NCBI GenBank assembly: GCA_028711065.1
Contig: JAQTSY010000006.1
Span: 213 to 64,212 of the forward strand
Length of the DNA: 64,000 nucleotides
Direction: 5' to 3'
DNA from: Minisyncoccota bacterium
GTDB taxonomy: Bacteria; Patescibacteriota; Minisyncoccia; Phycocordibacterales; JAQTLZ01
Part shown: one piece after another, positions 28,113 through 61,507 of the stretch
Layout: each line of letters opens with the position of its first letter
Position numbering within the stretch: the first letter of the stretch is position 1
Made by a program: the position numbers and the translations under genes
Notes under the pieces: generated by a model
Seen by the model: the letters and a program-made list of their open reading frames with translations, nothing else
Databases searched by the model: none
Told to the model about the DNA's origin: nothing

Positions 28113-28121
28113 CTCGAAACA

Positions 28122-28265
28122 GTCTTTATGAGACACCAGAAAAATCCCCAGCGGGGATTTTTCTTTGTGCTGGGCGCCGGCTGCTTTGTGGTATAGTTTT
28201 TGCCCAAAGCAAAAATTACACCACAAAGACCCTGCCAGCCTGGCGTGCGCGGTGTCTCAAAAGAC
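28122..28265. repeat. Copy B of the ~142-nt structured intergenic element
   Basis: Outer inverted repeat gtctttatgagacacc / ggtgtctcaaaagac. Inner hairpin agaaaaatcccc-agc-ggggatttttct. Core 28165-28250 is 84/86 identical to 5729-5814. Confidence 0.8.
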
Positions 28266-28316
28266 AGTTTCTCGCTCGTGGTGAATTCAGAGAATTGTGA
28301 TATTATCTAGCGCACT

Positions 28317-28390
28317 GGGTCCATAGTTTAATGGTAGAACGACGGTCTCCAAAACTGTAGGTCGAGGTTCGATTCCTCGTGGGCCCGCCA
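28317..28390 (+). tRNA. tRNA-Trp (anticodon CCA), CCA end encoded
   Basis: Acceptor stem gggtcca/tgggccc, D-arm gttt..gaac, anticodon loop cuCCAaa, T-arm cgagg-ttcgatt-cctcg, discriminator G, then CCA. Confidence 0.85.
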
Positions 28391-28487
28391 AAAAACAGCG
28401 TTAGCGTTTTTTGAGCGAGCCCAAGAAAGCCATAAAGATAGCTTTCGGCGAGGAATCGACCGATACTCCTCGTGGATCATCTCAAAT

Positions 28488-30115: not shown

Positions 30116-30208
30116 GGAGTGGGTTGGGACCCGCTCCGCAAGACCTTGAGCGTTCTGTAATCAGAATGTGAAAGGTGTACAGCTCCTGTAAGGAGAAAAT
30201 TGACGTCA

Positions 30209-30239
30209 AAAACCGGTGAAGACTTGCTTCACCGGTTTT
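30209..30239. terminator. Bidirectional terminator (13-bp perfect stem flanked by an A-run and a T-run) between convergent genes
   Basis: aaaaccggtgaag-acttg-cttcaccggtttt. Confidence 0.7.
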
Positions 30240-30255
30240 GATCCTTATTTTCATT

Positions 30256-32344: not shown

Positions 32345-33355
32345 ATGGCTGACCTAGCCAACAAGACGTTGCCTGAATTGGTGGACATTGCCGAGGGACT
32401 CCAGGAGAGTCTCGAACGGGAGACCAAGGCGAAGGAAAGACTTCAGGAACGGATGAACACTGAAACGGTGTTCAAAGAAACGTCCCGGCTCTCGCTGGAG
32501 CTCGGCAAGACCGACGCCAACTTGAAGTCGGCTCAACTCCAGGTGAGCAAGCTGGAAGCTGCTCGCGAGGTGCACGTGACACAGGCGACGGGCATGGAGA
32601 AGGTCATCGCGGAGAAAAATGCGCGTATCGCCGAAATACAGAATGAGCTCGATGATGTTAAACGTGCTCGCAAAACCATTGAAGGTGCTCTGCTCCTCAG
32701 TCAAGCGACAAATGTCGGAAGGAGCTGGGGACCGTATGTCGGCGCCGTCGCCATGACTATCATCATGGCTGTGGTATTCGTCAAGGGGTTCTGGATGCCG
32801 CGCACCGGCGACGTGAAAACTGACGTGTACAATGCCGTGGGGCAGCTCTCGTCGATGATGTGGCAAGAGCGCGACCGCGCACAACAGTTGCAGAATGCAG
32901 ACGCATTCTGGGGCGTGAAGATGGGGAAGTCCACAGACGGCGAGGCGTCCTTTACCGTAAATATTTGGCCGGAGCTTTCGGGAAAGAAGAAGGCAGATGG
33001 CGAATATATTTCCGGTCTTATCCTCACCGCACTGCGCTTCAATACCGCCGTGGTCACCCCCGGACAGAACATCGAATCGCATATCGCCTACGCGGACGCG
33101 CCCGAGAAAGGGGGAATACAATTTTCCGATTATCTCAATGATGTGCTAAACCATAGCCGGAAGGATATCGATTCTCACCTTAAGGAGTTTAATGTGAACA
33201 TTAACGTTGAATATCTCCACGTGAAGGAAGAAAACTTCCGCCAGCGTGGTATAGGCTTTTTCTTTAGGGATGGAAAGTTCACCGAGAAGCAGGAGAAGAT
33301 GGATAAGTTTTATCCAGATCTGCCACCTCCTGGCCCCGGTGATGGAAAAGGTTGA
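32345..33355 (+). CDS. Hypothetical coiled-coil / membrane protein in a GC-rich islet
   Basis: There is an N-terminal coiled coil, a central TM helix (VGAVAMTIIMAVVFV) and a C-terminal globular domain. GC is about 52% and a terminator follows. Confidence 0.5.
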   Translation: MADLANKTLPELVDIAEGLQESLERETKAKERLQERMNTETVFKETSRLSLELGKTDANLKSAQLQVSKLEAAREVHVTQATGMEKVIAEKNARIAEIQNELDDVKRARKTIEGALLLSQATNVGRSWGPYVGAVAMTIIMAVVFVKGFWMPRTGDVKTDVYNAVGQLSSMMWQERDRAQQLQNADAFWGVKMGKSTDGEASFTVNIWPELSGKKKADGEYISGLILTALRFNTAVVTPGQNIESHIAYADAPEKGGIQFSDYLNDVLNHSRKDIDSHLKEFNVNINVEYLHVKEENFRQRGIGFFFRDGKFTEKQEKMDKFYPDLPPPGPGDGKG

Positions 33356-33414: not shown

Positions 33415-33541
33415 TTGAAAAAAGAATCGACCCTTACAGGGAGTAGTATCCTGATTGTTTTTTTATTAAGAGAATCGGTCACAAGTCTTTTTCTGCTGAA
33501 AAAGCTCGCGACCCCGACTCAGCGCCCATGCGCTTCCGTCT

Positions 33542-33614
33542 TTCGATTCTCTCTCCCGCACCAAAGACAGGGTTTTCCCTGTCTTTGGTTTTTGTGCCGG
33601 GAGAGAGAATCGAA
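33542..33614. repeat. Long composite hairpin formed by the tRNA-Leu 3' end and an inverted copy of it downstream
   Basis: Outer arms ttcgattctctctcccg (33542-33558) and cgggagagagaatcgaa (33598-33614) pair perfectly over 17 bp. Between them lies the inner perfect hairpin accaaagacaggg-tttt-ccctgtctttggt, followed by TTTTT on the + strand. Confidence 0.75.
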
Positions 33615-36376: not shown

Positions 36377-36410
36377 GCCAAAAAACAGCCTTAAAAGGCT
36401 GTTTTTTGGC
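36377..36410. terminator. Palindromic terminator (14-bp perfect stem containing A6/T6 tracts) downstream of topA
   Basis: gccaaaaaacagcc-ttaaaa-ggctgttttttggc. Confidence 0.7.
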
Positions 36411-36475
36411 TAGAGAATAGCGTTCTGGTATTGTCTTCGGTCACAGATAATTTCCTCACCCATGTTCGGAAATTT

Positions 36476-36499
36476 CCGCGACCCCGACTCGCGGTTTTT
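36476..36499 (+). terminator. Orphan + strand intrinsic terminator in the topA/rel intergenic region
   Basis: ccgcga-ccccgac-tcgcgg followed by TTTTT. There is no + strand CDS upstream of it. Confidence 0.45.
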
Positions 36500-36571
36500 G
36501 CTTCTGCAAAAACATCGCTCCGTCTCACCAAAACCAGTTGCGCATGTGGCGTAGGCCACATGCTTCCGTAC

Positions 36572-48465: not shown

Positions 48466-48602
48466 TGATGGCTTTCCGCAAAAACCAGCAGTACTATTAA
48501 AGAGTGCTGTTTGAGCTGATGCTGTCCTATTCTGGATAGCCTGTCTCGGACAGAAGACAAGTACGTCTCCAGTGTGGAGACAAAATAAGGGGAGGGCAGG
48601 TC

Positions 48603-49148
48603 ATGCGCAACAGACCGACCGCCGTAAAGGCGCTGCTTATCGCAGCGATCCTGATGTTCAGTATTCCGTACGCGTGGTGCAATCCGACGACGACGACCGC
48701 GAATGGGGAGGGCAAGGCAATCGCCGCCAACTCGGACAACATCGCCGTTTTCGTGAATGTGGACAACCGCGTCGAGCACGGGCGTATGCGCGTCGTGTAC
48801 GTGAACGAGTACCGCTGGAACAACATCAATCTCGCGCTGCAAGGGCAGGCCGGCGAGATGAACGTGAACGGCCGCAATTTCGCCATCGAGGAGTACAAGA
48901 ACAACGGCGACAATCCGGCGTTCCAGGCATCCGCGACGAACTACGATCCGTCGCCGCAGTCAGTCATCCAGGTCAACGAGAACATCATCGCGCTGAACAA
49001 GGGCAGGCCGGAAGGTTGGCAAAATAATGGTCCGAATCCGTCGGCATGGACATACGCGTCGCACAAGCATTTTACAGATCAACGCGCGGCCGGCTACTTC
49101 GGGTTCCACAACAATTCTAATGGCATGGTGTGCATCACCGGCCAATGA
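48603..49148 (+). CDS. Secreted hypothetical protein (signal peptide), encoded in a ~60% GC island
   Basis: MRNRPTAVKALLIAAILMFSIPYAWC is a signal-peptide-like N-terminus and the protein is Asn/Gly-rich. All overlapping ORFs look like shadows of the high GC content. Confidence 0.5.
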   Translation: MRNRPTAVKALLIAAILMFSIPYAWCNPTTTTANGEGKAIAANSDNIAVFVNVDNRVEHGRMRVVYVNEYRWNNINLALQGQAGEMNVNGRNFAIEEYKNNGDNPAFQASATNYDPSPQSVIQVNENIIALNKGRPEGWQNNGPNPSAWTYASHKHFTDQRAAGYFGFHNNSNGMVCITGQ

Positions 49149-49406
49149 TTGACCCGAGCAATCGGGCGCATTATAGGGGCTGACGAACACACCAGTGTCC
49201 GCCAGCCCTGTTTTCTACCCAATTTTCTTTCTTTCGGGAGCTAGTTGACATTTTTAAGGGCTGTGCTAAGGTATCTCCCGGTCAAGAAGTAAAAGGTTAC
49301 ATAAAAAACGACTCTAGTGGGAGGCACGCCTTTGTGGGCGCGTTTTCGTTACTAGATCACAGGGTGGGGAAGCCAATAGGGCAACCCCGTACACGGGAGG
49401 TGCAGT

Positions 49407-49982
49407 ATGTTGTATGCCACAAAGCACTACGGCCTGATGCTGGCCGGGTTCGTTTCGATTGTCTTGTTCAGTTTCTCGACGCGCGCGACCGAAGCCCAGC
49501 CGCAGAGCGATCAGACCAAGGACAAGCCGACGACGGTGAACAAGGATGCCAGCGCGGCGCCCGCGAAGGACGGCGTGAAGCAGGCCAGCAACACGGCCGT
49601 GCAGACGGTTGAGGTCAACAACAAGGATGGAGCTGTGAAGTTTCTGAGCTCCATCTGCGAGGTCGGCCTCAACCTGAAGCCGACGATCATCGGCACGCAG
49701 GACACTACCACGGTTTTCGCGCAGCTCGTTGACGCGAAGGCCGTAAACGTTACGCCCACGCGCGATTTTTGCATCAAGCTGGAAAACAACGAGGGCGTGA
49801 AGTACGTGTTGAGCGAGAACGACATGAAGGAACTCATCCTGAAGCTGGACAACTCTTCTCGCCCGGACATGATCACACTGATTCCGGCACTGAAGAAGGC
49901 CAGCGTCAGCATGAACGACGGCGCCAATAAGTCCACACTGGCCGTCAGCACGACCTCCGCCCCCGGCGCCGACAAGAAATAG
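49407..49982 (+). CDS. Secreted/membrane-anchored hypothetical protein, encoded in the same high-GC island
   Basis: The RBS GGGAGGTG precedes the ATG. The N-terminus is hydrophobic (GLMLAGFVSIVLFSFS). Confidence 0.5.
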   Translation: MLYATKHYGLMLAGFVSIVLFSFSTRATEAQPQSDQTKDKPTTVNKDASAAPAKDGVKQASNTAVQTVEVNNKDGAVKFLSSICEVGLNLKPTIIGTQDTTTVFAQLVDAKAVNVTPTRDFCIKLENNEGVKYVLSENDMKELILKLDNSSRPDMITLIPALKKASVSMNDGANKSTLAVSTTSAPGADKK

Positions 49983-50286
49983 TCGGCCGCCGGCAAAGGG
50001 ATTGGCCCATTCTCGATTCCATCGAGGTGGGCCAATCCCGCCCCAAACTTCAGTAGTACACCAACAATTAAATAGCAAGAACCCAATCACGTTCGTGACT
50101 GGGCGCAGATCATGACTTCATAATCCTCAAAGGAAAAGAGAAGTTGATCAGCCCTTGAAAAGGGAGAAAGGAGCAACATAGGAAACGACACCTGTGCCAA
50201 TCTTTTCTCCCTTTCAACTTTTCTGCCCCCGCTTTGAGGCGGTTTTTTATTTTTTTAAAATCATTTTCTTCTGTTATACTCTCCGT

Positions 50287-51370: not shown

Positions 51371-51441
51371 TGGGGGATCGTCTAACGGTAGGACAGAGGC
51401 CTTTGAAGCCTTTAATCGGGGTTCGATTCCCTGTCCCCCAG
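51371..51441 (+). tRNA. tRNA-Gln (anticodon TTG); CCA not encoded
   Basis: The U1-A72 acceptor pair tggggga/tccccca, the anticodon loop cuUUGaa, the T-arm cgggg-ttcgatt-ccctg and a discriminator G match the architecture of bacterial tRNA-Gln. Confidence 0.85.
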
Positions 51442-51588
51442 CAAAATTTCCAGAGGAAATTTTCTGTCCGAAGTAATGGGGATTACTTCGGCAGGGAATC
51501 GAAGCCTGTTTGAGTATTTACTGAAAGTAAATCCAAACAGGAAACTGCTCCTGTAAGGAGCGATACTCCCTGTCCCCCAGCCAACTCG
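51442..51588. repeat. Highly structured 130-nt segment bracketed by the tRNA-Gln 3' end and an imperfect direct repeat of it (att-like)
   Basis: The tRNA 3' end is cgattccctgtcccccagca (51424-51443). The repeat is cgatactccctgtcccccagcca (about 51566-51588), this time with CCA. The interval contains four stable hairpins. Confidence 0.7.
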
Positions 51589-51639
51589 CGCCAGGTTATC
51601 GCGCTCGAGATGCGTCGATAATCGGTAAAATAATTAATT

Positions 51640-52038: not shown

Positions 52039-52159
52039 TTAATCTTCTTAGCCCCACGAGACTTGTTGATTTCATTTACAAAAACTAACCAAACGGACCA
52101 ACCCGGGCTTGACCGATAGCGGTTCTAACTCGAGACGGCCAGCCAAAGTTTAAATCCCC

Positions 52160-53293: not shown

Positions 53294-56200
53294 ATGAAAC
53301 TTGCAACACAGAGCGGTCGTCATTCCTTTGTTTGCAAAGTGGTTTTTTGTGTTGCCTCAGTTTTTTTTGTAGCTGCGCTTATTAAGCCCACTACAACTTT
53401 TGCAGCTGCGAGAACTGCCTCGGTTACTGGTAACTGGAGTAATACTGCCACGTGGGGAGGCAGCTCTGTTCCTGGAGCTAGCGATACAGTTACTATCAAT
53501 TCAGGTGTCATCGTCACAGTAGACGTAACCTCCTCTGCAACTTCTATTACATTTCCAACAGCATCTGCTGCTACAAAATTAGTCATCAATTCTGGAGTGA
53601 CACTTACTGTCTCCGGCGCGGTAACTATCCCTGAAGGGTCGGGTGCGGGTAACAATACCCTCGCTGTAGGTTCCGGAACCTTGGTTGCCGGAAGTGTCGC
53701 CTTTACCAATGCGGCAAATGCCAAAAAACATTCGATGTCGATATCCACAGGCACGGTAACTGTCTCGGGTGCAATTTCTATTGACGGCTCAAATAAAAAA
53801 AGCCCCAATGTATCAATCACTGGTGCAGGAACCCTAAACGTGGGCGGGGCATTTTTTACTGGCTCTAACAACACAGGGCTTATTACTACTTCTTCAGGAA
53901 GCACGATAAATTACAACGGTTCGGGAGCTCAAACGGTGAAAGCCGCTACGTATACCGGAAATCTAGTTCTTTCCGGAAGCGGAGCAAAATCTATCAGTGC
54001 GTCTAATGTTACCGCTACGACTGCTAATTTGAGTATTGCTCCCGATTCGGGCGGAGCCACTGCCAGTATGACTGGATCACTTACCGTGGGGACCCTCAAA
54101 CTTGCTGGGGTGGGAAAGGCGAGTGGTACTTACGGTAGTACTTCATCTTCAGCAACTACCAAAACCAATACCTATTTTGCTGGAAGCGGACTGGTAAGTG
54201 TCACCACTAGTACTGTGGACACGACCGCACCAACTATTTCCAATGTTACGTCAGCACTCGCCAATGGAACGTACAAAGCGGGACAAGTTATTGATATTGA
54301 TGTTACATTTTCAGAACAAGTCACTTCTACGGGAAATGTGACGGTAAATCTTGATACCGGCAGGAGTTGCACGTTTACTGTGAGTGCTGCGACGACAGGA
54401 ACCTGCAATTACACCGTACAGGCCGGTGACACCTCAAGCGATCTTACTGCTTCATCCATTAGCGGAACCATTGCGGACACGACTGGGAATGCCATGACCA
54501 ACTTTACTCCTGCTACGAATCTCGCTGCCAACAAAGCAATCGTTATTGATACTACCGCACCGACGGTTTCTTCCGTGACGTCTTCCACATCAAATGGCAG
54601 CTACACCACTGGCGCGACCGTTTCCATCCAAGTAAATTTTTCTGAAGCGGTGAATGTTACCGGCACGCCGCAACTTACCCTACAAACCACTTCCACTACT
54701 ACTCGAGCTTTAAACTATGTGTCAGGAACTGGCGGGACAGCACTTACTTTCACCTATTTAGTCCAGGCGGGCGATAACTCCAGCGATCTTGACTATAGTG
54801 CGACGAGCGCACTTGCTCTCAATAGCGGTACCATAAGCGATACGGCCACGAATGCCGCCACGCTTACACTTCCAACCCCGGGATCGAGTCACACTGGTTC
54901 ATTGAGCAACACCTCTGCGATTGTTATTGATACGACCGCGCCGACAGTTGTGAATGTCACCTCATCAAATGCCAACGGTAATTATAAAGCAGGGGAAGTG
55001 ATAGCGGTGCAAGTTGTTTTTTCAGAGCCTGTGACAGTGAGCAACACTCCGCACCTCGTGCTCCTTACCGGGTCTCCGGCAACCAAAAATGTCGGCTATT
55101 CCTCCGGTTCAGGTTCTACCACTCTTGAATTCGACTATACGGTCGGAGCAAACAACTTCACTTCTGATCTCGAATACGCCTCGGCCGGAGCGCTCTCCAC
55201 CAGTAATTCGGGTTCGGCTTCTACAATTCAGGACGCTGCTGGCAATGCCGCGACGATCACCCTTCCGACTCCAGGCACAACAGGCTCTTTAGGCTATAAC
55301 AAAAACATCATCATTGATTCCACCGCTCCGACGGTCACCCTTACCTCCACCTCAACTTCTCTTACAAATGTTCCCATTCCTGTCACCGCTCGATTTTCTG
55401 AAGCAGTCACTGGGTTTACATCGGGAGATGTTTCTGTGATTACGAGTAATGCCACGGTTGGGAGTTTTGTGACCGTCTCTAGTTCGACATATACATTTGT
55501 AGTTACGCCAACCGGACAGGGTCTAGTGAGCATTTCTATTCCAGGTAGCGCTGCGACTGATATTGCGGGAAACGCAAACACCGTTTCAAACACACTTTCT
55601 CGCACCTATGACAGCGTCGCTCCGACAGTTGCGCTCACCACTTCAACCGTTTCCCCGACACTAACAACGCCAATAAGTTACACCGCGACTTTTTCTGAAG
55701 CAATGACCGGATTTACCGTCTCGGATATTACTGCAACCAATGCGACCGTCGGTAATTTTCATACAGTGTCGAGCCAAGTGTACACGTTTGATGTCTCTCC
55801 TATTAGTAATCCTATAGACAACGTGGATGTCTACACGTCCGTGGACGCCGGGAAAGCCACGGATGCGGCAGGAAATGCTAATACCGCATCAGACAGCGGA
55901 GTTCCCTCCTATATAAGATTTGATAACCACAGCCCCACTGTCGCACTCACATCGTCGGCCGGAGATTTTGTCAATGCGCCTTTTTCTGTTACCGCGACAT
56001 TTGCTGAATCAGTTACGGGTTTTGTTCTCGGTGATATTTCTGTTACGCATGGCACGGCAGGAAGTTTTACTCCTGTTTCCGGTTCTGTTTATACGTTCAC
56101 GGTGACACCGACGAGCCAGGCCCTTGTTTCAGTCTCTGTTGCGGCTGGAGTTGCGCAAGATAATGCACTGAACGCAAATCTTGCCTCGAACGTATTGCAA

Positions 56201-59200
56201 ACGACATACGACACTGGCGCCCCTACGGTGGTTCTTAGTACGGCTCAATCGAGTCCTACCAATGTCTCACCAGTTTCTGTGACGGCGACTTTTTCTGAAA
56301 CTGTCACAGGATTTACGGTAGATGATATTTCTCTCACAAATGCTACGGCAGATAATTTTCTTGGATCCGGTACAACGTATACATTTGATGTTACTCCTTC
56401 GGGTCAAGGTGCCGTGACAGTGAGTCTTCCCGACGGAAGCGCAATTGACGTTGCAAATAATAACAGCACTGTATCGAACACGCTGTCGTTTACTTACGAT
56501 ACCGTTGCTCCGACGCTCACTGAGGACACGCCAGTTCCAGCGCTGACGACGGACACCACGCCGAATTATTCATTCAGGACTAATGAAAACGGAACAATAA
56601 CCTACGGCGGGAGCTGTAGTTCTGGAACTTCTTCTGCGCTTGCTTCTGCCACCACAACTGTCACTTTTAATACTTTGGCGAATGGCAGTTATAACGACTG
56701 CTCTATTACTGTTACAGACGCTGCAGGAAATGCGAGCTCGCCTCTTATAGTTCCTGCTTTTACGATCAACAATAGCGATCCAGTTGTCATCTCATATTCA
56801 CCAGCGAACAACGCGACCGGTGTTTTGGCTAATGCCAATCTCATTTTGACCTTCGATAAGGTTGTTACTGCGGGAACGGGAAATATTTATTTGAAGCAAG
56901 GAGGAACTACGATCGAGACTATTGATGTAACGAGCGGGCAGGTGACAGGTTCTGGTACAAATATTATTACGATTAATCCAACCACGACGTTAAGCAGTCA
57001 GACCACCTACACTATTCAAATAGATATCAATGCATTTCATGACTCATTCGGGAATGGCTATCCAGGAATCTCTGATAATACGACATGGAGCTTTACCAGT
57101 GCCGATACGGTCGCACCTACAGTAAGCTCTCTTTCACCGGCAACTCTTGCTACAGGAGCACCCGTGCATTCCTCGCTTGCAATTACTTTTAGTGAAAATG
57201 TTATTGTCCAAAGCGGGGGATTCGTGACGATCCGCAAAGCCGATAATTCTGTAGTAGAAGATATTTCTGTGACAAGCGGCGAAGTGACTGGATCGGGCAC
57301 GAGTGTGATACTCATAACTCCGAGCGTTACTTTGGATGGCTTGACGAACTATCACGTTACCGTAACCGCGACCGCGTTTGCAGATAGCGCCGGAAATTAT
57401 TACGCCGGAATATCTGATGCCACCACCTGGACATTTCAGACACTCGATACCTCGAATCCTTTCGTCACAGCATTTTCACCTGCCAATTTTGCAACGGGAG
57501 TTTCGGCGACCGCGAACTTGGTTATGACGTTTGATAGAGCGGTCTATGTGGAAACGGGGACTACTACCATTAAGACCGGGGGTTCTACTGTTGAATCAAT
57601 TGCTTTGACTGATGGTACTAAAGTGACGGGCTCGGGCACAAATACTATCACCATTAATCCCGCCACGACCTTGAGCAGCCAAACGACCTATTACATTCAA
57701 ATTGATGCTGGCGCGCTGAATGACTCATCGGATGGCTTAGGTAATCCATTTGATGGAATTTCTGATACTACCACCTGGACTTTTACCACACTTGATACCA
57801 CCAATCCAACGCTTTCTTCTATTGCTCTTTCTTCGAACAATACACTTTCTTCGTCATTAGCGAAGGCGGGAGACACGATGACACTTTCATTTGTTGCAAG
57901 TGAAAGCATTTCTACACCAACGGTGAGCTTTACTTCTGGGGGTGTGTCGGTTGCCAATGCTGTGTCAGTTACAAATACCACCGGTAACAATTGGATCGCT
58001 TCATATACAGCTAGTTCTTCTGACACAAATGGAGCAGTAGCTTACAGCATCAATACCTATCACGATACAACTGGAAATAATGGTTCAGCATACACAAGCG
58101 GAACAGGTTCTGTGACATTTGATAAGACTGTGCCAACACTCTCATCTGTAAACCTGGTTTCCAATAATTCCACCAACACGAGAGCGAAAGTGGGGAACCT
58201 CATCACTCTTTCATTCACTTCGAGCGAAACAATTTCTACTCCAGCAGTAAGCTTTACTTCAGGTGGGGCACCGGTGACAGGCACTGTAACAGTCGCTTCT
58301 TCAACGAATAGTTGGACAGCTACGTACACCATGAGTTCTTCTGACACGGCGGGCAGTATTGGTTACAGTATAAATACTTTTCACGACAATGCAGGGAATA
58401 ACGGTGATGCAGTTACAAGTGGAACAGGGAGCGTGACCTTCGACAAAACCGTTCCGACTCTGTCTTCTGTCACCCCTGCTTCTTCTGCTACGATTAGTAA
58501 TGTAACCTCGTCTTCCGCTATCGCTTTCACTTCGAGTGAGGCCTTGGGGAGCGGTTCGGTTACCATTACCAGAAGCTCCGGAGCAGCCGATGGCACAGTG
58601 CATACTTGTACGCTGAAAGGCACAGCACTCGATGCGGGCGCTCACATCATTGATCTTTCTGATACAACCAATAGCTGTACCTTGGATGTTTCTTCTCTCG
58701 TTTCTGGCACTGTTTACACATTTGTGTTTGCCGGAAGCGATCTTTCGGGAAATGCAGCAACGTCTGTGACGAGAACGGGTATCATTTTTGACACCACTGC
58801 GCCTACGCTTTCATCCGTCACTCTCGTGTCCAGCAATTCCACAAACACGCAAGCAAAAGTAGGCGATGTTATAACACTTTCGTTTACGGCAAGCGAGACT
58901 ATCTCTCTGCCGACGGTAACTTTTTCTTCCGGCGGTGATCCTGTGAACGGCTCTATTGTTGTGAGAAATCCATCTGGTAATAATTGGACAGCCACCTATA
59001 CAGCGGGTTCTTCTGATACAGAAGGAAGTGTGACTTACCGTATCAGTGATTTTTCAGATAGTGTCAGCAATGCCGGCTTGGCGGTAACAACTGGAAGCGG
59101 CGGCGTTACCTTTGATAAGACAGTACCCACCATCACCAATGTCACCTCGTCAAAAGCCAACGGTACCTATTCTGTCGGTGAGTCGATTCCTATAAACCTT

Positions 59201-61507
59201 ACTTTTTCCGAAGCCGTCACTTCCGACGGAGAGGTGACCGTAACACTTGATACGGGAAGGACCTGCGTCTTTTCTCTCACCTCTGACACATCAGGAAGCT
59301 GCAATTATATAGTTCAAGACGGAGATTCGTCGAGTGACCTCAACGTCACTTCTATTCTAGGAACCATTTCGGATGTTGCGGGCAATGCACTGACTAATTT
59401 CACTCCGGCAACAAACCTCGCGGCCAATAAAGCCATTGTCATCGACTCAACAGCACCCGACACAAGTATTCCTACTATTACAGATGTCACTTCAACAAAA
59501 GGGAACGGCTCGTATACTACTGGAGTATCGATTGATATTCGCGTGACATTTTCTGAATCTGTGAGCTCTACGGGCAATGTGACGGTCACTCTTGATACTG
59601 GCGGAACCTGCTCATTCAGCGTGGCAACGAGCTCTTCCGGCAGTTGTAATTATGTCGTGGGTGGAGGTGAGACTTCTTCCGATCTTACCGTTACATCAAT
59701 TTCCGGGACCATAAAAGATGCTGCAAACAATACTTTGGTGGATTTCAATCCTGCAACAAATTTAGCAGATAATAAGGCGATTGTTATTGATACGACGATA
59801 CCAATCCTCTCTTCCGTTACCCCAGCGTCTTCCGTCACTATAGATAACGTCACATCATCTTCTTCGATCGCATTTACTGCAAGTGAGAGCTTAGGAAGCG
59901 GTTCTATCACCATCTCTCGATCTTCTGGAGAAACCGATGACACGATCCATACCTGTACGCTCAAAGGTACAGCACTCAATGCCGGCGCACACACCATTAA
60001 TCTTTCTGATACCACTAACAGCTGTACTTCAAATGTTTCAGACCTAGTTTCAGGTGCAGTTTATAGTTTTGTGTTTGCTGGAAGCGATTTGGCTGGGAAT
60101 CCTGCAGACCCTGTTACGGGCGACGAAGTTACCTATTTTATTACTGTGCCTGTTGTAGATGTAGCGGGTATCACTGTCACAGGTACTGGAGATGCAACCA
60201 CTATTAGTGCCGATGGAGGGACTCTCCAAATGCTTGCGAGTGTTCTTCCTGGAGACGCCACAAATTCTTCCGTGACATGGAGTATTGTTTCGGGAGGCGA
60301 CTTCGCTTCAATTGATGGAGATGGTCTTCTTACTGCCACAGGAAACGGGGAAGTTACTGTTCGAGCGACAGCAAACGATGGGTCAGAAGTATACGGTGAA
60401 CTTATTATTACCATAAGCGGGCAGACAATCCCTACCACTCCTGTTTCTGGCATTACAGTCACTGGTACTGGAGATGCAACAACGATTACTGATGCTGGCG
60501 GTACTCTTCAAATGTTAGCGGATGTACTGCCGGTTGATGCCACTGATTCATCAGTCACATGGAGTATAACTACCGGCGGAGACAACGCTTCTATTGATGC
60601 GGACGGCCTTTTGACTGCGATTGCAGACGGGGAAGTTACTGTTCGAGCGACAGCAGATGACGGATCGGAGGTTTACGGAGAACTTGTTATCACAATTACA
60701 GGACAGACAGTTTCTACACCGACACCGACCCCAGAACCGACAGCCACTCCTACCCCTGATCCAACCCCAACCCCTACTCCTGATACAACTCCAACACCTG
60801 ATCCAACTCCGACGCCAACACCGACTGCAACCCCAACCCCAACACCAACGAGGACGCACGCAAGAGCTTCTTCGGGCGGTTCTTCAGGTGGTGGCGGAGG
60901 AGGAAAAGCCCATGCCTTGAGCAATCCCGTATTTTGTACCTCAAATATCTATCCAACCAAGCTAATAAAATTCGGTGTGAAAAATGATCCCGAACAAGTA
61001 AAACTGCTCGAACGTTATTTGAATGCCTTTGAAAACGCGAAATTACCAGTTAATGGTGTGTATTCAAAAGATGATATGTCCGCCTTTATTCTCTGGCAGA
61101 AAAAATATGTACCCGAAGTATTAAGGCCATCAGTGAAAATCAATGAGGAGGGCTATGTAGCCACTGCCAGTCTTACCAAATTGAAAACTCTCTTTCTGGC
61201 GAAATGTAAACCTTTTCCGGTCATTGCTCCTCCTGTGTCCAATGCTTTTCCGTCAAAGAAAGCTATACCTTTCGTGTGGAGTCGAGATCTAGAATTTGGA
61301 ACAACCGGCAATGATGTGTTTGCCCTTCAGCAGAGTCTCATTTCCTTGAAGGTGGGCCCGGCGGGCGAAGCTCTGGCAAAGAATGGGCCAACTCATTATT
61401 TTGGGATATTTACACAGCGAGCGCTTATTGAATTCCAGAAAGCAAAAGGAATTACACCGGCAATTGGATATTTCGGCCGCAAAACAAAAATGTTTATTTC
61501 CCTCTAG
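53294..61507 (+). CDS. Giant secreted surface/adhesin-like protein (2737 aa). It has a signal peptide and about 20 tandem Ig-like repeat modules separated by ...DTTAPT... linkers. It also has two Big_2 domains, a Pro/Thr linker, a Gly/Ser tract and two C-terminal peptidoglycan-binding-like domains.
   Basis: MKLATQSGRHSFVCKVVFCVASVFFVAALI...AAA is the signal peptide. The repeated modules of about 95-100 aa start (I/V)DTTAPTV..VTSS.ANGSYK.G..I.I.V.FSE.VTV. Two Big_2-like units are present (VTGTGDATTI.ADGGTLQMLA.VLP.DAT.SSVTWSI). [20 protein letters not shown] linker follows. The C-terminus carries the PG_binding_1-like pattern (TTGNDVFALQQSLISLKVGP...GIFTQRALIEFQKAKGITPAIGYFG). Confidence 0.85.
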   Translation: MKLATQSGRHSFVCKVVFCVASVFFVAALIKPTTTFAAARTASVTGNWSNTATWGGSSVPGASDTVTINSGVIVTVDVTSSATSITFPTASAATKLVINSGVTLTVSGAVTIPEGSGAGNNTLAVGSGTLVAGSVAFTNAANAKKHSMSISTGTVTVSGAISIDGSNKKSPNVSITGAGTLNVGGAFFTGSNNTGLITTSSGSTINYNGSGAQTVKAATYTGNLVLSGSGAKSISASNVTATTANLSIAPDSGGATASMTGSLTVGTLKLAGVGKASGTYGSTSSSATTKTNTYFAGSGLVSVTTSTVDTTAPTISNVTSALANGTYKAGQVIDIDVTFSEQVTSTGNVTVNLDTGRSCTFTVSAATTGTCNYTVQAGDTSSDLTASSISGTIADTTGNAMTNFTPATNLAANKAIVIDTTAPTVSSVTSSTSNGSYTTGATVSIQVNFSEAVNVTGTPQLTLQTTSTTTRALNYVSGTGGTALTFTYLVQAGDNSSDLDYSATSALALNSGTISDTATNAATLTLPTPGSSHTGSLSNTSAIVIDTTAPTVVNVTSSNANGNYKAGEVIAVQVVFSEPVTVSNTPHLVLLTGSPATKNVGYSSGSGSTTLEFDYTVGANNFTSDLEYASAGALSTSNSGSASTIQDAAGNAATITLPTPGTTGSLGYNKNIIIDSTAPTVTLTSTSTSLTNVPIPVTARFSEAVTGFTSGDVSVITSNATVGSFVTVSSSTYTFVVTPTGQGLVSISIPGSAATDIAGNANTVSNTLSRTYDSVAPTVALTTSTVSPTLTTPISYTATFSEAMTGFTVSDITATNATVGNFHTVSSQVYTFDVSPISNPIDNVDVYTSVDAGKATDAAGNANTASDSGVPSYIRFDNHSPTVALTSSAGDFVNAPFSVTATFAESVTGFVLGDISVTHGTAGSFTPVSGSVYTFTVTPTSQALVSVSVAAGVAQDNALNANLASNVLQTTYDTGAPTVVLSTAQSSPTNVSPVSVTATFSETVTGFTVDDISLTNATADNFLGSGTTYTFDVTPSGQGAVTVSLPDGSAIDVANNNSTVSNTLSFTYDTVAPTLTEDTPVPALTTDTTPNYSFRTNENGTITYGGSCSSGTSSALASATTTVTFNTLANGSYNDCSITVTDAAGNASSPLIVPAFTINNSDPVVISYSPANNATGVLANANLILTFDKVVTAGTGNIYLKQGGTTIETIDVTSGQVTGSGTNIITINPTTTLSSQTTYTIQIDINAFHDSFGNGYPGISDNTTWSFTSADTVAPTVSSLSPATLATGAPVHSSLAITFSENVIVQSGGFVTIRKADNSVVEDISVTSGEVTGSGTSVILITPSVTLDGLTNYHVTVTATAFADSAGNYYAGISDATTWTFQTLDTSNPFVTAFSPANFATGVSATANLVMTFDRAVYVETGTTTIKTGGSTVESIALTDGTKVTGSGTNTITINPATTLSSQTTYYIQIDAGALNDSSDGLGNPFDGISDTTTWTFTTLDTTNPTLSSIALSSNNTLSSSLAKAGDTMTLSFVASESISTPTVSFTSGGVSVANAVSVTNTTGNNWIASYTASSSDTNGAVAYSINTYHDTTGNNGSAYTSGTGSVTFDKTVPTLSSVNLVSNNSTNTRAKVGNLITLSFTSSETISTPAVSFTSGGAPVTGTVTVASSTNSWTATYTMSSSDTAGSIGYSINTFHDNAGNNGDAVTSGTGSVTFDKTVPTLSSVTPASSATISNVTSSSAIAFTSSEALGSGSVTITRSSGAADGTVHTCTLKGTALDAGAHIIDLSDTTNSCTLDVSSLVSGTVYTFVFAGSDLSGNAATSVTRTGIIFDTTAPTLSSVTLVSSNSTNTQAKVGDVITLSFTASETISLPTVTFSSGGDPVNGSIVVRNPSGNNWTATYTAGSSDTEGSVTYRISDFSDSVSNAGLAVTTGSGGVTFDKTVPTITNVTSSKANGTYSVGESIPINLTFSEAVTSDGEVTVTLDTGRTCVFSLTSDTSGSCNYIVQDGDSSSDLNVTSILGTISDVAGNALTNFTPATNLAANKAIVIDSTAPDTSIPTITDVTSTKGNGSYTTGVSIDIRVTFSESVSSTGNVTVTLDTGGTCSFSVATSSSGSCNYVVGGGETSSDLTVTSISGTIKDAANNTLVDFNPATNLADNKAIVIDTTIPILSSVTPASSVTIDNVTSSSSIAFTASESLGSGSITISRSSGETDDTIHTCTLKGTALNAGAHTINLSDTTNSCTSNVSDLVSGAVYSFVFAGSDLAGNPADPVTGDEVTYFITVPVVDVAGITVTGTGDATTISADGGTLQMLASVLPGDATNSSVTWSIVSGGDFASIDGDGLLTATGNGEVTVRATANDGSEVYGELIITISGQTIPTTPVSGITVTGTGDATTITDAGGTLQMLADVLPVDATDSSVTWSITTGGDNASIDADGLLTAIADGEVTVRATADDGSEVYGELVITITGQTVSTPTPTPEPTATPTPDPTPTPTPDTTPTPDPTPTPTPTATPTPTPTRTHARASSGGSSGGGGGGKAHALSNPVFCTSNIYPTKLIKFGVKNDPEQVKLLERYLNAFENAKLPVNGVYSKDDMSAFILWQKKYVPEVLRPSVKINEEGYVATASLTKLKTLFLAKCKPFPVIAPPVSNAFPSKKAIPFVWSRDLEFGTTGNDVFALQQSLISLKVGPAGEALAKNGPTHYFGIFTQRALIEFQKAKGITPAIGYFGRKTKMFISL

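Follow-up and report, generated by a model that had tools for sequence, protein, structure and literature searches.

The RtT RNA of Escherichia coli (Rfam RF00391; rttR) corresponds to 178-bp repeats distal to tyrT and tyrV. Bosl and Kersten are said to have described it in 1991 as a stable, processed RNA, and no mobility was reportedly noted. To our knowledge, no function has been assigned to it since 1991. RtT was later proposed to be a dispersed repeat (Naville and Gautheret, 2010; PMC2965389). When we compared the gatY and cvpA intergenic regions with the RtT unit, they proved to be ordinary REP/BIME sequence without similarity to it; the similarity claimed in that paper probably concerns the REP sequence in the rtT transcript. 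[quoted passage not shown] The elements described below share this position, but 3′ETS-leuZ and the rr RNAs, unlike them, are not built from antisense and sense copies of the 3′ end of the upstream RNA. Beyond the RtT repeats of E. coli tyrT, we found no earlier description of such tRNA-flank elements in the literature.

We analyzed a window of 64,000 nt from a Minisyncoccota bacterium (GCA_028711065.1, contig JAQTSY010000006.1, positions 213-64,212, forward strand). ARAGORN and the Rfam tRNA model (62.1 bits) place a tRNA-Gln(UUG) gene at 51371-51441 on the plus strand, with the 3′ end at 51441 or 51442. The discriminator, G51441, is followed by CA rather than CCA, so that CCA is not encoded. 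The last part of the gene (51422-51441, plus strand), which we call S1, comprises the T-loop TTCGATT, the T-stem 3′ strand CCCTG, the acceptor 3′ strand TCCCCCA, and the discriminator. This segment is copied downstream both in antisense and in sense.

The sense repeat had been noticed in a first-pass annotation made from the letters alone, which described a 22-nt repeat recurring after 130 nt. The repetition stands, but its length and spacing do not: the exact match is the 14-mer CCCTGTCCCCCAGC, present at two sites only (51429-51442 and 51568-51581), with starts 139 nt apart and 125 nt between the copies. Further upstream, the CGAT of the repeat is set off by T in the first copy and by ACT in the second. 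Allowing up to two mismatches, 0.16 matches to CCCTGTCCCCCAGC are expected in the 64-kb window, and three matches were reached in 0 of 100 shuffles. The second copy is followed by CA to give GCCA; the annotation was right that the gene lacks CCA and that the second copy carries it. Its four stable hairpins between the copies were also borne out by folding, which gave -52.4 kcal/mol with z = -4.84 and no equally stable structure in 200 shuffles. What it overlooked were an antisense copy at 51492-51503 and the antisense loop of the second hairpin.

The complete order behind tRNA-Gln is S1, a hairpin, the antisense copy (AS), the core hairpins, and the second sense copy (S2), all on the plus strand. 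Hairpin hp1 (51443-51463; AAAATTTCC-AGA-GGAAATTTT), delimited by folding and by comparison with three other loci (L004, L001, and L102), consists of A and U only, resembles a weak terminator, and forms the apex of a long S1/AS palindrome. A similar hairpin with paired stem changes occurs in L004, while other relatives carry unrelated terminator hairpins instead. Hairpin hp2 (51468-51491), defined from the fold and from L004, L018, L073, L093, and L098, has a 10-bp stem and a GGGG(A) loop that is antisense to the UCCCC of the acceptor 3′ strand. Other members have hp2 inserted precisely at the junction of the parts that are antisense to the acceptor and to the T arm. AS (CAGGGAATCGAA; 51492-51503), found by sequence and locus comparison, is a perfect 12-nt reverse complement of tRNA positions 54-65, which span the T-loop and the T-stem 3′ strand. 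It was identical in all six distinct tRNA-Gln elements with a full-size core and this T-arm; those of L093 and L096 differ at the first base only.

The core contains two further hairpins. One is long (hp3, 51505-51541), with a conserved base, CCUSKUUGAG...UCCAAMSAGG, and a variable tip; the other (hp4, 51547-51561) reads GCTCC-TGTAA-GGAGC and is followed by a conserved GAUA. An RNAalifold alignment of the window, L001, L089, and L102 predicted 24 pairs in hp3 and hp4, 11 of which show changes on both sides, including compensatory changes in hp3. Hairpins like hp4 are not enriched across the window (10 found versus 10.3 expected). S2 (51561-51583; CGAT-ACT-CCCTGTCCCCCAGC-CA), recognized by sequence, folding, and repeat search, is the second sense copy of the tRNA-Gln 3′ end. 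In the predicted fold it pairs with AS in a helix, P1, that contains an AC bulge and leaves the tail UCCCCCAGCCA unpaired. The adjoining flank (51584-51612, plus strand; ACTCGCGCCAGGTTATCGCGCTCGAG...) can be aligned with the close relative L001; according to the gene tables, the two carry different genes beyond it.

Judged from its bases, AS is a templated complement rather than a copy of the tRNA 5′ strand, because it places A opposite U64 in the Gln element, C opposite G69 in the Trp element described below, and A opposite U70 in an Ala element. Position U64 lies in a G-U pair within tRNA-Gln itself. We also considered other identities for these parts. S2 is not the 3′ end of an overlooked tRNA gene, a possibility the first-pass annotation had left standing: neither ARAGORN nor the Rfam tRNA model, even at E≤10, finds a cloverleaf there. 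Nor does S2 consistently act as a source of the missing CCA across members, as the gene in L016 carries CCA while its S2 lacks it, and in L093 both carry it. Hammerhead and C/D-box motifs did not fit the core sequences when read by eye. A T-loop intron was rejected because the bulge-helix-bulge motif is absent, the host is bacterial, and the upstream tRNA is already complete.

All three tRNA genes in the window, Gln, Trp, and Leu, are followed by the antisense and sense layout, each fitted to its own tRNA. Sequence inspection and local alignment located the Trp element at 28391-28475 (plus strand), after the tRNA-Trp gene (28317-28390). Its parts are a hairpin resembling a terminator, GAGCCCA (antisense to the acceptor), hp2, the antisense copy CGAGGAATCGA, and the sense copy CCGATACTCCTCGTGG, and it has the same AC bulge as the Gln element. 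The Leu element (33469-33594, minus strand), behind tRNA-Leu (33676-33595, minus strand), was found by sequence and alignment and is identical in two independent Logan assemblies. It begins with a hairpin at 33588-33561 and the 18-nt GCGGGAGAGAGAATCGAA at 33559-33542, the last 17 nt of which are an exact antisense of tRNA-Leu. These are followed by what we term a type-2 core (ACGGAAG-hairpin-CUGAGUC-GGGGUCGCGAG-hairpin-ACUUGUGACC) and by the sense copy CGATTCTCT at 33477-33469. A regex scan, used in place of a covariance model because MAFFT aligned the variable hairpins of the type-2 core poorly, revealed an orphan type-2 core without a tRNA at 36379-36571 (minus strand), between a topA-like ORF and relA/spoT. 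From its sequence and fold, the closing arms of the orphan are not tRNA-like, it ends in a strong terminator, and it has no match in Rfam.

The layout is also present in other Paceibacterota, in a Nitrospira MAG, in a Eubacteriaceae MAG, and at tyrV of E. coli, in which Rfam lists it as the RtT family. The tRNA genes of L001 and L004 are followed by antisense and sense copies, as are tRNA-Tyr in L016, tRNA-Ala in L018, and tRNA-Ser in both L020 (Eubacteriaceae) and L073 (Nitrospira). For these genes and the three of the window, local alignment scores ranged from 11 to 20, against 9 or less in upstream control regions, except for one tandem tRNA-Ser pair. Among 19 metagenomic tRNA-Gln loci, eight contain AS. 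The arms follow the tRNA when it changes: the T-stem is GGGG/CCCT in the window and TTGG/CCAA in L004, and both AS (GATTTGGAATCGAAC) and S2 (TCCAAATCCCCCAGCCA) of L004 carry the corresponding bases. An arrangement shared with relatives, which the first-pass annotation had set against its own integration-site reading, was thus found in part, in a distant genome and with arms altered along with the T-stem. In L001, L102, and L098, S2 has drifted from S1, and pairing with AS is kept through G-U pairs and bulges.

Within the P3 part of the core, the tRNA-Leu element of the window and a tRNA-Ser element in L145 are identical at 41 of 44 positions (0 of 500 shuffles), and the arms of each match its own tRNA despite the near-identical P3. 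A single core type stands behind several tRNA species, with arms that fit the local tRNA in most cases. Taken together, the Gln segment reads as a member of a family of hairpin-rich elements, each only about 85-250 nt long, that begin immediately 3′ of a tRNA gene and share its strand. As deduced from the loci compared, a member opens with a hairpin that is terminator-like in most cases, continues with the neighboring tRNA's positions 54 to about 72 in reverse complement, which a hairpin often interrupts exactly at the acceptor/T-stem junction, and closes with a structured core and with the same tRNA segment in sense, which sometimes extends through CCA.

The closest described relative of this family is the E. 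coli RtT RNA, whose Rfam structure has the same outer helix (AS/S2) and the same acceptor-CCA tail. Both lie directly 3′ of a tRNA gene and on its strand. The outer helix of RtT joins an antisense copy, GGGGAAGGAU, to the T-stem 3′ strand and acceptor strand of the tRNA repeated in sense, which is the design seen here. In the rtT units of E. coli, the antisense copy reads GGGGAAGGAT and the sense copy AATCCTTCCCCCACCACCA, and in the predicted structures, the pairing of CAGGGAAUCG with CGAU(AC)UCCCUG in the Gln element matches the RtT consensus P1. In RtT and in the Gln element (UCCCCCAGCCA, 51573-51583) alike, the acceptor 3′ strand and CCA make up the 3′ tail. Internal hairpins and tandem units are common to both, and in the lowest-energy fold of the full RtT precursor, as here, the distal copy is the partner of the tRNA 5′ end. 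There are also differences. RtT and our elements come from different phyla and lie behind different tRNA species; the antisense copy includes the T-loop and measures 12-20 nt here, compared to 10 in RtT; and most of our members, unlike RtT, have a terminator-like hairpin between the tRNA and the element. RtT is reported as a processed RNA; the present elements are putative RNAs. Direct similarity is weak: the Leu core and RtT share a short motif, GAAGCGC...GCGCUGAGU (p about 0.04).

The elements were not matched by the RtT covariance model at its gathering threshold (45 bits) or at E≤10, while the E. coli positive control scored 134-138 bits. At Rfam gathering thresholds, no family, RtT included, matched the elements in the window or in L016, L018, L020, and L073. 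The Rfam search that the first-pass annotation had proposed thus returned no family beyond tRNAs for the element; over the gathering-threshold runs and the E≤10 runs on the Gln, Leu, and orphan elements combined, the only matches were tRNAs, SRP RNA, and chance hairpins.

To our reading, positions 51443-51583 are probably an RtT-like structured element in the tRNA 3′ flank that is made as RNA and is quickly gained and lost, a view to which we assign a probability of roughly 0.55. Several folding results are consistent with an RNA. In 12 of 14 elements, the tRNA strand is predicted to be more stable than the opposite strand, with 50 versus 27 G-U pairs. The lowest-energy fold paired S1 with AS in all 13 full precursors, beating the native cloverleaf by 5-27 kcal/mol, and in most of these minimum folds the tRNA 5′ end paired with S2. 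In one proposed mechanism, transcription of the tRNA gene would read through into the element. Pairing of AS with S1, the thermodynamic minimum, would undo the cloverleaf, while pairing of AS with S2 would free the tRNA and form a helix resembling the tRNA acceptor and T arms, with an NCCA tail. The machinery that matures tRNA 3′ ends might then trim the AS/S2 helix into a separate small RNA, as reported for RtT. On this reading, the elements pass between tRNA genes and turn over rapidly. Since T-loops are alike in all tRNAs, the T-loop-derived borders of the core could serve as points of recombination or template switching.

Other observations count against an RNA. The Gln and Trp elements of the window are the two cases in which the opposite strand has a slight advantage in folding. 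In most members, the tRNA and AS are separated by a plausible intrinsic terminator that often works in both directions, so that transcription of the element would hinge on read-through; behind tRNA-Leu, the hairpin between the gene and AS scores as a terminator only on the opposite strand. We found no promoter-like site inside the elements. In lineages with a drifted S2, AS still complements the tRNA perfectly, for which RNA pairing alone does not account, and the orphan core has arms unrelated to any tRNA. In addition, strand bias and G-T pairs are also expected of a hairpin folded in single-stranded DNA.

Comparison of strains revealed gain and loss. The Leu and Trp elements are absent from strains with a 99% identical LysRS, and homology between the window and the empty-site strains stops about 5 nt beyond the tRNA. 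Genes that vary between strains lie a short way downstream of element-bearing tRNAs. Tandem units occur in L016, L098, and E. coli. These changes between strains, the single core type behind several tRNAs, the variable genes downstream, and the degenerate tRNA-end copies near DUF2200 described below come near to another first-pass suggestion, namely that a minimal mobile RNA-like element had entered the tRNA 3′ end. If our reading holds, tRNA 3′ flanks in Paceibacterota are points of strain-level turnover.

A rival explanation of the elements, which we consider unlikely but serious, is by analogy with CTX-phi at dif (XerCD, IMEX) or an attC cassette: a miniature DNA element might integrate as folded single-stranded DNA. 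Sense and antisense copies would pair within the single strand to rebuild the duplex of the tRNA 3′ end (attP mimicking attB), and one strand exchange followed by replication would leave S1, linker, AS, linker, S2. Larger versions would hold genes between AS and S2, and the circular junction would be ...GGAGCGATACT joined to CCCTG...hp1. The CTX-phi attP(+) hairpin and integron attC are imperfect palindromes of about 100-150 nt whose stem rebuilds the target duplex, and the S1/AS and AS/S2 palindromes here appear alike in being imperfect, with a stem that reproduces the tRNA-end duplex. Bulges at fixed positions, tandem arrays, and a sense, antisense, sense order after integration, the last inferred from the published CTX-phi model, would be further parallels. 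Such integration would fit an AS that stays a perfect tRNA complement beside a decayed S2, the hairpin or bulge at a fixed position in the AS strand, and presence or absence between near-identical strains with homology ending about 5 nt past the tRNA. It would equally fit tandem units (L016, L098, and E. coli), one core type with different arms, and variable genes after the elements, including, in L001, a degenerate tRNA-end copy 2.6 kb downstream, past genes for a 286-aa protein and an amino-acid permease; a folded DNA strand would account just as well for the strand bias and G-T pairs. However, a tRNA 3′ end takes the place of dif or attI as target, and there is no R/L box consensus, no cargo between the copies in the window, and no recombinase gene near any element examined. 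A viral or phage origin found no backing: all 31 IMG/VR matches of the 16-mer spanning AS and its junction in the Gln element fell by chance in unrelated coding sequence, and neither the Gln nor the Leu element had a match when 50,697 phage genomes were searched by BLAST. At 100-190 nt, an element lacks the means to move or replicate by itself, each new tRNA target would require a change of both arms, and RtT is reportedly a stable processed RNA that is not known to be mobile.

Less likely again is a mutational by-product. Work from the Roth laboratory reportedly describes tandem inversion duplications that arise by snap-back at quasi-palindromes. Template switching of this kind during replication, at the nearby terminator hairpin and T-arm palindromes, would yield a near-neutral tandem inversion duplication, and conversion between the palindrome arms would keep AS identical to the tRNA. 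Such duplications are direct, inverted, direct triplications with junctions at short palindromes, as here, and S1, hp1, and AS do form one long, near-perfect palindrome whose center is the loop of hp1. It takes the form of a perfect 40-bp stem in L018, and the arms of the Leu element in the window measure 31-38 nt with two small indels. The center of the AS/S2 palindrome lies in the T-loop, where TCGA/TTCGAA is itself palindromic (the Trp element), and the layout appears sporadically in unrelated phyla with unrelated cores. Against this, the scale here is about 20 nt rather than kilobases, and the elements have conserved, structured cores. An arrangement with arms that track the tRNA persists across lineages that share only about 62% identity in DnaX. 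AS, hp3, and hp4 are homologous where hp1 has been replaced by unrelated hairpins, and hence they did not arise by recent duplication. The compensatory changes seen in hairpins, a near-identical core behind different tRNA species in different genomes, and an extra hairpin at the same junction in many independent members are likewise at odds with a by-product.

A broader proposal, which we hold tentatively and would doubt sooner than accept, is that such elements make up a hitherto unrecognized, cross-phylum class at tRNA 3′ ends with "programmed" arms, antisense and sense, that correspond to positions 54-73. Within this proposal, a member might be a cis-acting, three-state RNA switch that unfolds its own tRNA or releases a mimic of its 3′ end, coupling tRNA maturation to read-through. 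It might instead be a new kind of minimal mobile element, one that enters tRNA genes in the form of folded single-stranded DNA and gains arms fitting each of them. Under both views, RtT of E. coli would represent the class in enterobacteria and provide an experimental handle on it. If the RtT-like reading itself holds, RtT would not be an E. coli curiosity but one member of a widespread antisense and sense design behind tRNA genes; a testable hypothesis for its function, through AS or S2 in E. coli, would follow, and structured elements outside Rfam coverage could be annotated in CPR and other genomes. The same finding would caution against island-finding tools that read a repeated tRNA 3′ end as an att site.

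That was how the first-pass annotation had chiefly read the locus, as the attL/attR pair of a tyrosine integrase or the possible scar of an excised island in tRNA-Gln, nearly all of it deleted, with the downstream genes as possible leftover cargo. Classical tRNA att sites of islands and prophages do share with the Gln locus a direct repeat of the tRNA 3′ end that starts in the T-loop and strain-variable DNA downstream, and gene content after tRNA-Gln differs between the window and L001. We nevertheless regard this origin as very improbable and largely refuted. Only about 125 nt separate the repeats, an island leaves the antisense copy unexplained, the element is kept with covarying arms in L004, and the same design follows every tRNA in the window, in core-gene contexts. 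Pfam searches identified DnaX, Dus, DUF2200, and RibD_C as neighbors of tRNA-Gln, and LysRS, RarA, MiaA, ParB, and RelA/SpoT as neighbors of the other tRNAs. Among the main flanking ORFs (at least 116 aa) of the three tRNAs, all of which were housekeeping genes or had no domain match, there was no integrase or recombinase, for which the annotation had advised a search nearby. DUF2200 and RibD_C, suggested there as cargo, are also present in L001 and are thus not strain-specific. Exact-protein look-ups of DnaX (the long ORF), the 132-aa protein, and the DUF2200 protein returned nothing on record.

Two further observations are compatible with an island. Displaced 3′ fragments of a different tRNA-Gln allele directly follow the gene in L097, L100, and L090. 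Further copies of the tRNA end, for which the first-pass annotation had advised a search, exist in degenerate form. Repeat comparison revealed a decayed unit upstream of DUF2200 at 52108-52147 (plus strand; TGACCGAT...CCAGCCAAAG), and at the same place L001 carries GCTGGGAGG...CCCCTGTTCTCCAGCCAAA, a degenerate tRNA-end copy that is less decayed than that of the window.

ARAGORN and Rfam place a tRNA-Gln(UUG) gene at 51371-51441 (+) of the window, whose host is a CPR bacterium (Paceibacterota, 'Candidatus Pacebacteria') with a DnaX that shares 98% identity with the DnaX of GCA_028714635.1. After the discriminator G comes CA rather than CCA. As the first-pass annotation had reported, the tRNA 3′ end is directly repeated, the second time with CCA: CCCTGTCCCCCAGC occurs exactly at 51429-42 and 51568-81, with CA after the second copy. 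The window would be expected to hold 0.16 matches to CCCTGTCCCCCAGC at ≤2 mismatches; none of the shuffles contained three. The repeat is shorter than the 22 nt first described, with 14 exact nt plus CGAT; the spacer between these is T in the tRNA and ACT in the distal copy. The segment between the copies is as hairpin-dense as described; the 148 nt 3′ of the tRNA fold into four hairpins (hp1-hp4, 51443-51561) at -52.4 kcal/mol (z = -4.8).

The earlier description lacked an antisense copy. Between the two sense copies, at 51492-51503, lies CAGGGAATCGAA, which is perfectly reverse-complementary to the T-loop and T-stem 3′ strand of tRNA-Gln; the acceptor 3′ strand has its own antisense match in the GGGGA loop of hp2. 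The order is the tRNA's own 3′ strand (S1), hp1, (hp2), the antisense copy (AS), hp3, hp4, and the distal sense copy (S2). Opposite U64 stands A in AS but G in the 5′ T-stem strand of the tRNA, which makes AS a templated complement of the 3′ strand and no duplicate of the 5′ strand. A joint fold of tRNA-Gln and the element reached its minimum (-93 kcal/mol, z = -6.2) in a structure other than the cloverleaf; S1 paired with AS, and the tRNA 5′ acceptor and 5′ T-stem strands paired with S2.

Other tRNAs have the same design. Behind the tRNA-Trp gene (28317-28390) stand, in order, a terminator-like hairpin, the acceptor-antisense GAGCCCA, another hairpin, the T-antisense CGAGGAATCGA, and the sense copy CCGATACTCCTCGTGG, which has the same AC insertion as S2 of tRNA-Gln. 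On the minus strand, tRNA-Leu is followed by a hairpin, the 18-nt GCGGGAGAGAGAATCGAA, whose last 17 nt are exact tRNA antisense, a structured core, and CGATTCTCT. Past this element, at 33415-33450 (minus), we observed a hairpin, CUCCCUGUAAGGG, whose UGUAA loop recurs in hp4 of the Gln element; UCGAUUCU, where part of the tRNA-Leu T-loop and T-stem occurs in sense for the third time; and a terminator.

We scored the 300 nt 3′ of each tRNA in the window and in the first 85 fetched loci (dnaX loci). Downstream scores were bimodal, with positives at 11-20 and both background and upstream controls at ≤9, bar one tandem tRNA-Ser pair. Positives were the window tRNA-Gln, -Trp, and -Leu; tRNA-Gln of the comparison loci L001 and L004; tRNA-Tyr (L016) and tRNA-Ala (L018) from CPR; and tRNA-Ser(GGA) of a Eubacteriaceae MAG (L020) and a Nitrospira MAG (L073). 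A second Nitrospira locus (L079) has the same tRNA-Ser and SRP RNA without the element. The loci compared here were collected around dnaX, LysRS, and one tRNA-Gln sequence and amount to no census. Tandem second units stand behind the first element in L016, L098, and L089: that of L016 (~5660-5600, minus) consists of a terminator, GCGTAGG, a hairpin, and GAAGGATTTGAA; that of L098 includes TGGCTGGGGGA, with the complement of CCA inside; and the hp4 region of L089 is present twice as a repeat.

Searching metagenome contigs for the exact 3′ 25-mer of tRNA-Gln yielded 19 loci, 8 of which have AS. The block of AS, hp3, and hp4 is homologous in the window, L001, L089, and L102, with the 12-mer CAGGGAATCGAA invariant; the hairpins in place of hp1 are unrelated, and S2 can be perfect, unrecognizable, or anything between. 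RNAalifold, applied to these four sequences, gave 24 pairs in hp3 and hp4, with compensatory changes on both sides in 11 and several pairs that are U-G on the tRNA strand. Drifted S2 copies (L001, L102, and L098) still close the AS helix through G-U pairs and bulges. AS is constant as the Watson-Crick complement of the tRNA and S2 drifts provided that AS pairing persists, which suggests that the AS-S1 and AS-S2 pairings are both maintained. The tRNA strand was more stable than the opposite strand in 12 of 14 elements (G-U pairs, 50 versus 27), the exceptions being the window Gln and Trp elements.

In L004, whose DnaX is ~62% identical to the window's, hp1 is recognizably akin to window hp1, the T-stem is TTGG/CCAA, and AS (GATTTGGAATCGAAC) and S2 (TCCAAATCCCCCAGCCA) are both altered to match. 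The design in so distant a relative, with arms matched to its own T-stem, counts against a chance scar, a reading that the first-pass annotation had itself made dependent on the arrangement in relatives. L097 (+24 nt past tRNA-Gln), L100, and L090 contain short pseudo T-arm and acceptor fragments of a different tRNA-Gln allele (e.g., GGCGATTCCAAGTCCCCCAGCC) with a common conserved trailer, TGTGMGCAGGAG; these look like displaced 3′ ends from tRNA replacement. The L104 contig, which also matched the 25-mer, has a phage-like array of seven tRNA genes (Lys, Lys, Arg, Arg, Asp, Val, and Ile) in 730 nt (586-1314), with antisense or sense copies downstream of none of the seven.

In E. coli, 178-bp repeats after the tyrT operon include the final 19 nt of tRNA-Tyr and are the source of rtT RNA. 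Each unit at this locus has GGGGAAGGAT (antisense) and AATCCTTCCCCCACCACCA (sense), and the Rfam RtT model (RF00391) matches three E. coli units at 134-138 bits. The annotated rttR starts 8 nt past tyrV and ends at the CCA of the first unit. Beyond the three annotated distal units, the tyrT-tyrV spacer of E. coli K-12 (L088, 1330-1538) holds a diverged RtT-like unit ending in AATCCTTCCCCCACCACCA. The RtT consensus has the same AS-S2 outer helix as the window elements, with the acceptor-CCA tail single-stranded, and both contain the motif GAAGCGC...GCGCUGAGU, a weakly significant likeness (18/500 shuffles). The RtT covariance model did not match the window elements even at E ≤ 10; the window element is RtT-like in architecture and outside the Rfam RtT family. 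S1-AS pairing appeared in the lowest-energy fold of all 13 precursors, E. coli tyrV among them. The tRNA 5′ end paired with S2 in most, and the minimum beat the enforced cloverleaf by 5-27 kcal/mol in MFE predictions, which leave aside tRNA tertiary structure, base modifications, and co-transcriptional processing. Several RtT helices have covariation support, according to a review (PMC8250186), and RtT function is still called unknown (bioRxiv 10.1101/2024.07.17.603846).

The structured core differs from the hp3/hp4 kind (type 1) in some elements. The type-2 core, which lies behind the window tRNA-Leu, reads ACGGAAG-hairpin-CUGAGUC-GGGGUCGCGAG-hairpin-ACUUGUGACC, its G-U pairs falling at fixed positions, and is also hosted by tRNA-Tyr (L016), tRNA-Ala (L018), tRNA-Gln (L093), and tRNA-Ser and tRNA-Glu (L145). 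P3 of this core is identical at 41/44 positions between the window tRNA-Leu and the L145 tRNA-Ser (0/500 shuffles), and the arms fit their own tRNA in each. The core borders are T-loop-derived (...AAUCGAA ends AS and CGAUU... begins S2). As all tRNAs have similar T-loops, such borders might mediate core exchange between tRNA loci.

An orphan type-2 core lies at about 36379-36571 (minus), in the 233-nt gap from a topA-like ORF (stop 36572) to relA/spoT (start 36338). It reads GACGGAG-hairpin-CGAGUC-GGGGUCGCGG-hairpin-AUCUGUGACC; its closing arms resemble no tRNA, a strong terminator lies at 36407-36379, and an upstream tRNA is absent. L021 (322-500) has a type-2 element with T-arm-like arms (GGGAGAATCGAA / CGATTCTCC) and an acceptor-antisense segment (GTGGGCACG), and no tRNA was called upstream of it within the locus. 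In the 3′ intergenic region of the RarA/MgsA gene (30116-30245), GCTCCTGTAAGGAGA, with a hairpin before it and a terminator after it, nearly equals hp4 of the Gln element (GCTCCTGTAAGGAGC) and may be an orphan fragment of a type-1 core.

L142 and L143 (the latter from the genome that also holds L001) each have a LysRS 99% identical to the window LysRS. Their tRNA-Leu gene is the same as in the window, but a plain terminator stands behind it and no element; homology to the window ends ~5 nt past the tRNA, and the neighboring coiled-coil genes are unrelated. These genes (window 32345-33355, 336 aa; L142 9493-10554, 353 aa) share a position and no sequence similarity, marking a hypervariable gene slot beside the tRNA-Leu 3′ end. 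In these strains, with LysRS and L33 genes 99% identical to the window's, tRNA-Trp is a different allele (anticodon stem and T-arm differ) without the element. It is followed by cupin and methyltransferase genes that are missing from the window; compared with window 28113-28390, L142 (5625-5755) and L143 also lack ~140 nt of hairpin-rich spacer upstream of tRNA-Trp. The whole tRNA-Trp locus appears to have been exchanged. Past tRNA-Gln, the window has a 132-aa ORF versus a 286-aa gene and an amino-acid permease in L001. L001 also has a degenerate extra unit directly upstream of DUF2200 (GCTGGGAGG...CCCCTGTTCTCCAGCCAAA), of which the window version is more decayed.

For the observed architecture, recurrence, co-variation, strand bias, and turnover, we favor, at a probability of about 0.55, a structured element in the 3′ flank of the tRNA gene that resembles RtT and whose transcription, processing, and any function we infer. 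Read-through from the tRNA gene would transcribe tRNA and element together, and AS would pair alternately with S1 and with S2. When paired with S2, it would form a likeness of the tRNA's acceptor and T arms that ends in NCCA, and this form would be set free as a small RNA. Most members have a likely terminator ahead of AS, and no promoter-like sites were seen inside the elements.

The att-site or island-scar reading of the first-pass annotation is poorly supported: no integrase was seen among the flanking genes, ~125 nt separate the repeats, the antisense copy goes unexplained, and the same design stands at every window tRNA. The strongest rival, which we consider unlikely, is a mini-element that folds as single-stranded DNA to integrate, in the manner of CTX-phi or an integron attC site. 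Such an element predicts the sense, antisense, sense order and would account for AS staying perfect, strain-level polymorphism, and variable cargo; G-T pairs and strand bias suit a folded DNA strand equally with RNA. However, no recombinase was found among the flanking genes, and neither a search of IMG/VR with a 16-mer of the Gln element nor BLAST of the Gln and Leu elements against phage genomes turned up a viral or phage copy. Slightly less probable still is that the units are products of mutation alone, through snap-back template switching at terminator and T-arm palindromes; this may account for the first origin of such units but leaves their conservation unexplained.

Elsewhere in the window, 48500-50000 has a G+C of 0.55-0.56 versus ~0.42-0.45 around it, and the ORFs at 48603-49148 and 49314-50090 (minus) in this stretch have no Pfam match. 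The 2,737-aa ORF at 53294-61507 has many bacterial Ig-like domains (Big_12, Big_5, and Big_2) and, at its C terminus, a peptidoglycan-binding domain; it is one of the giant surface proteins typical of CPR genomes.
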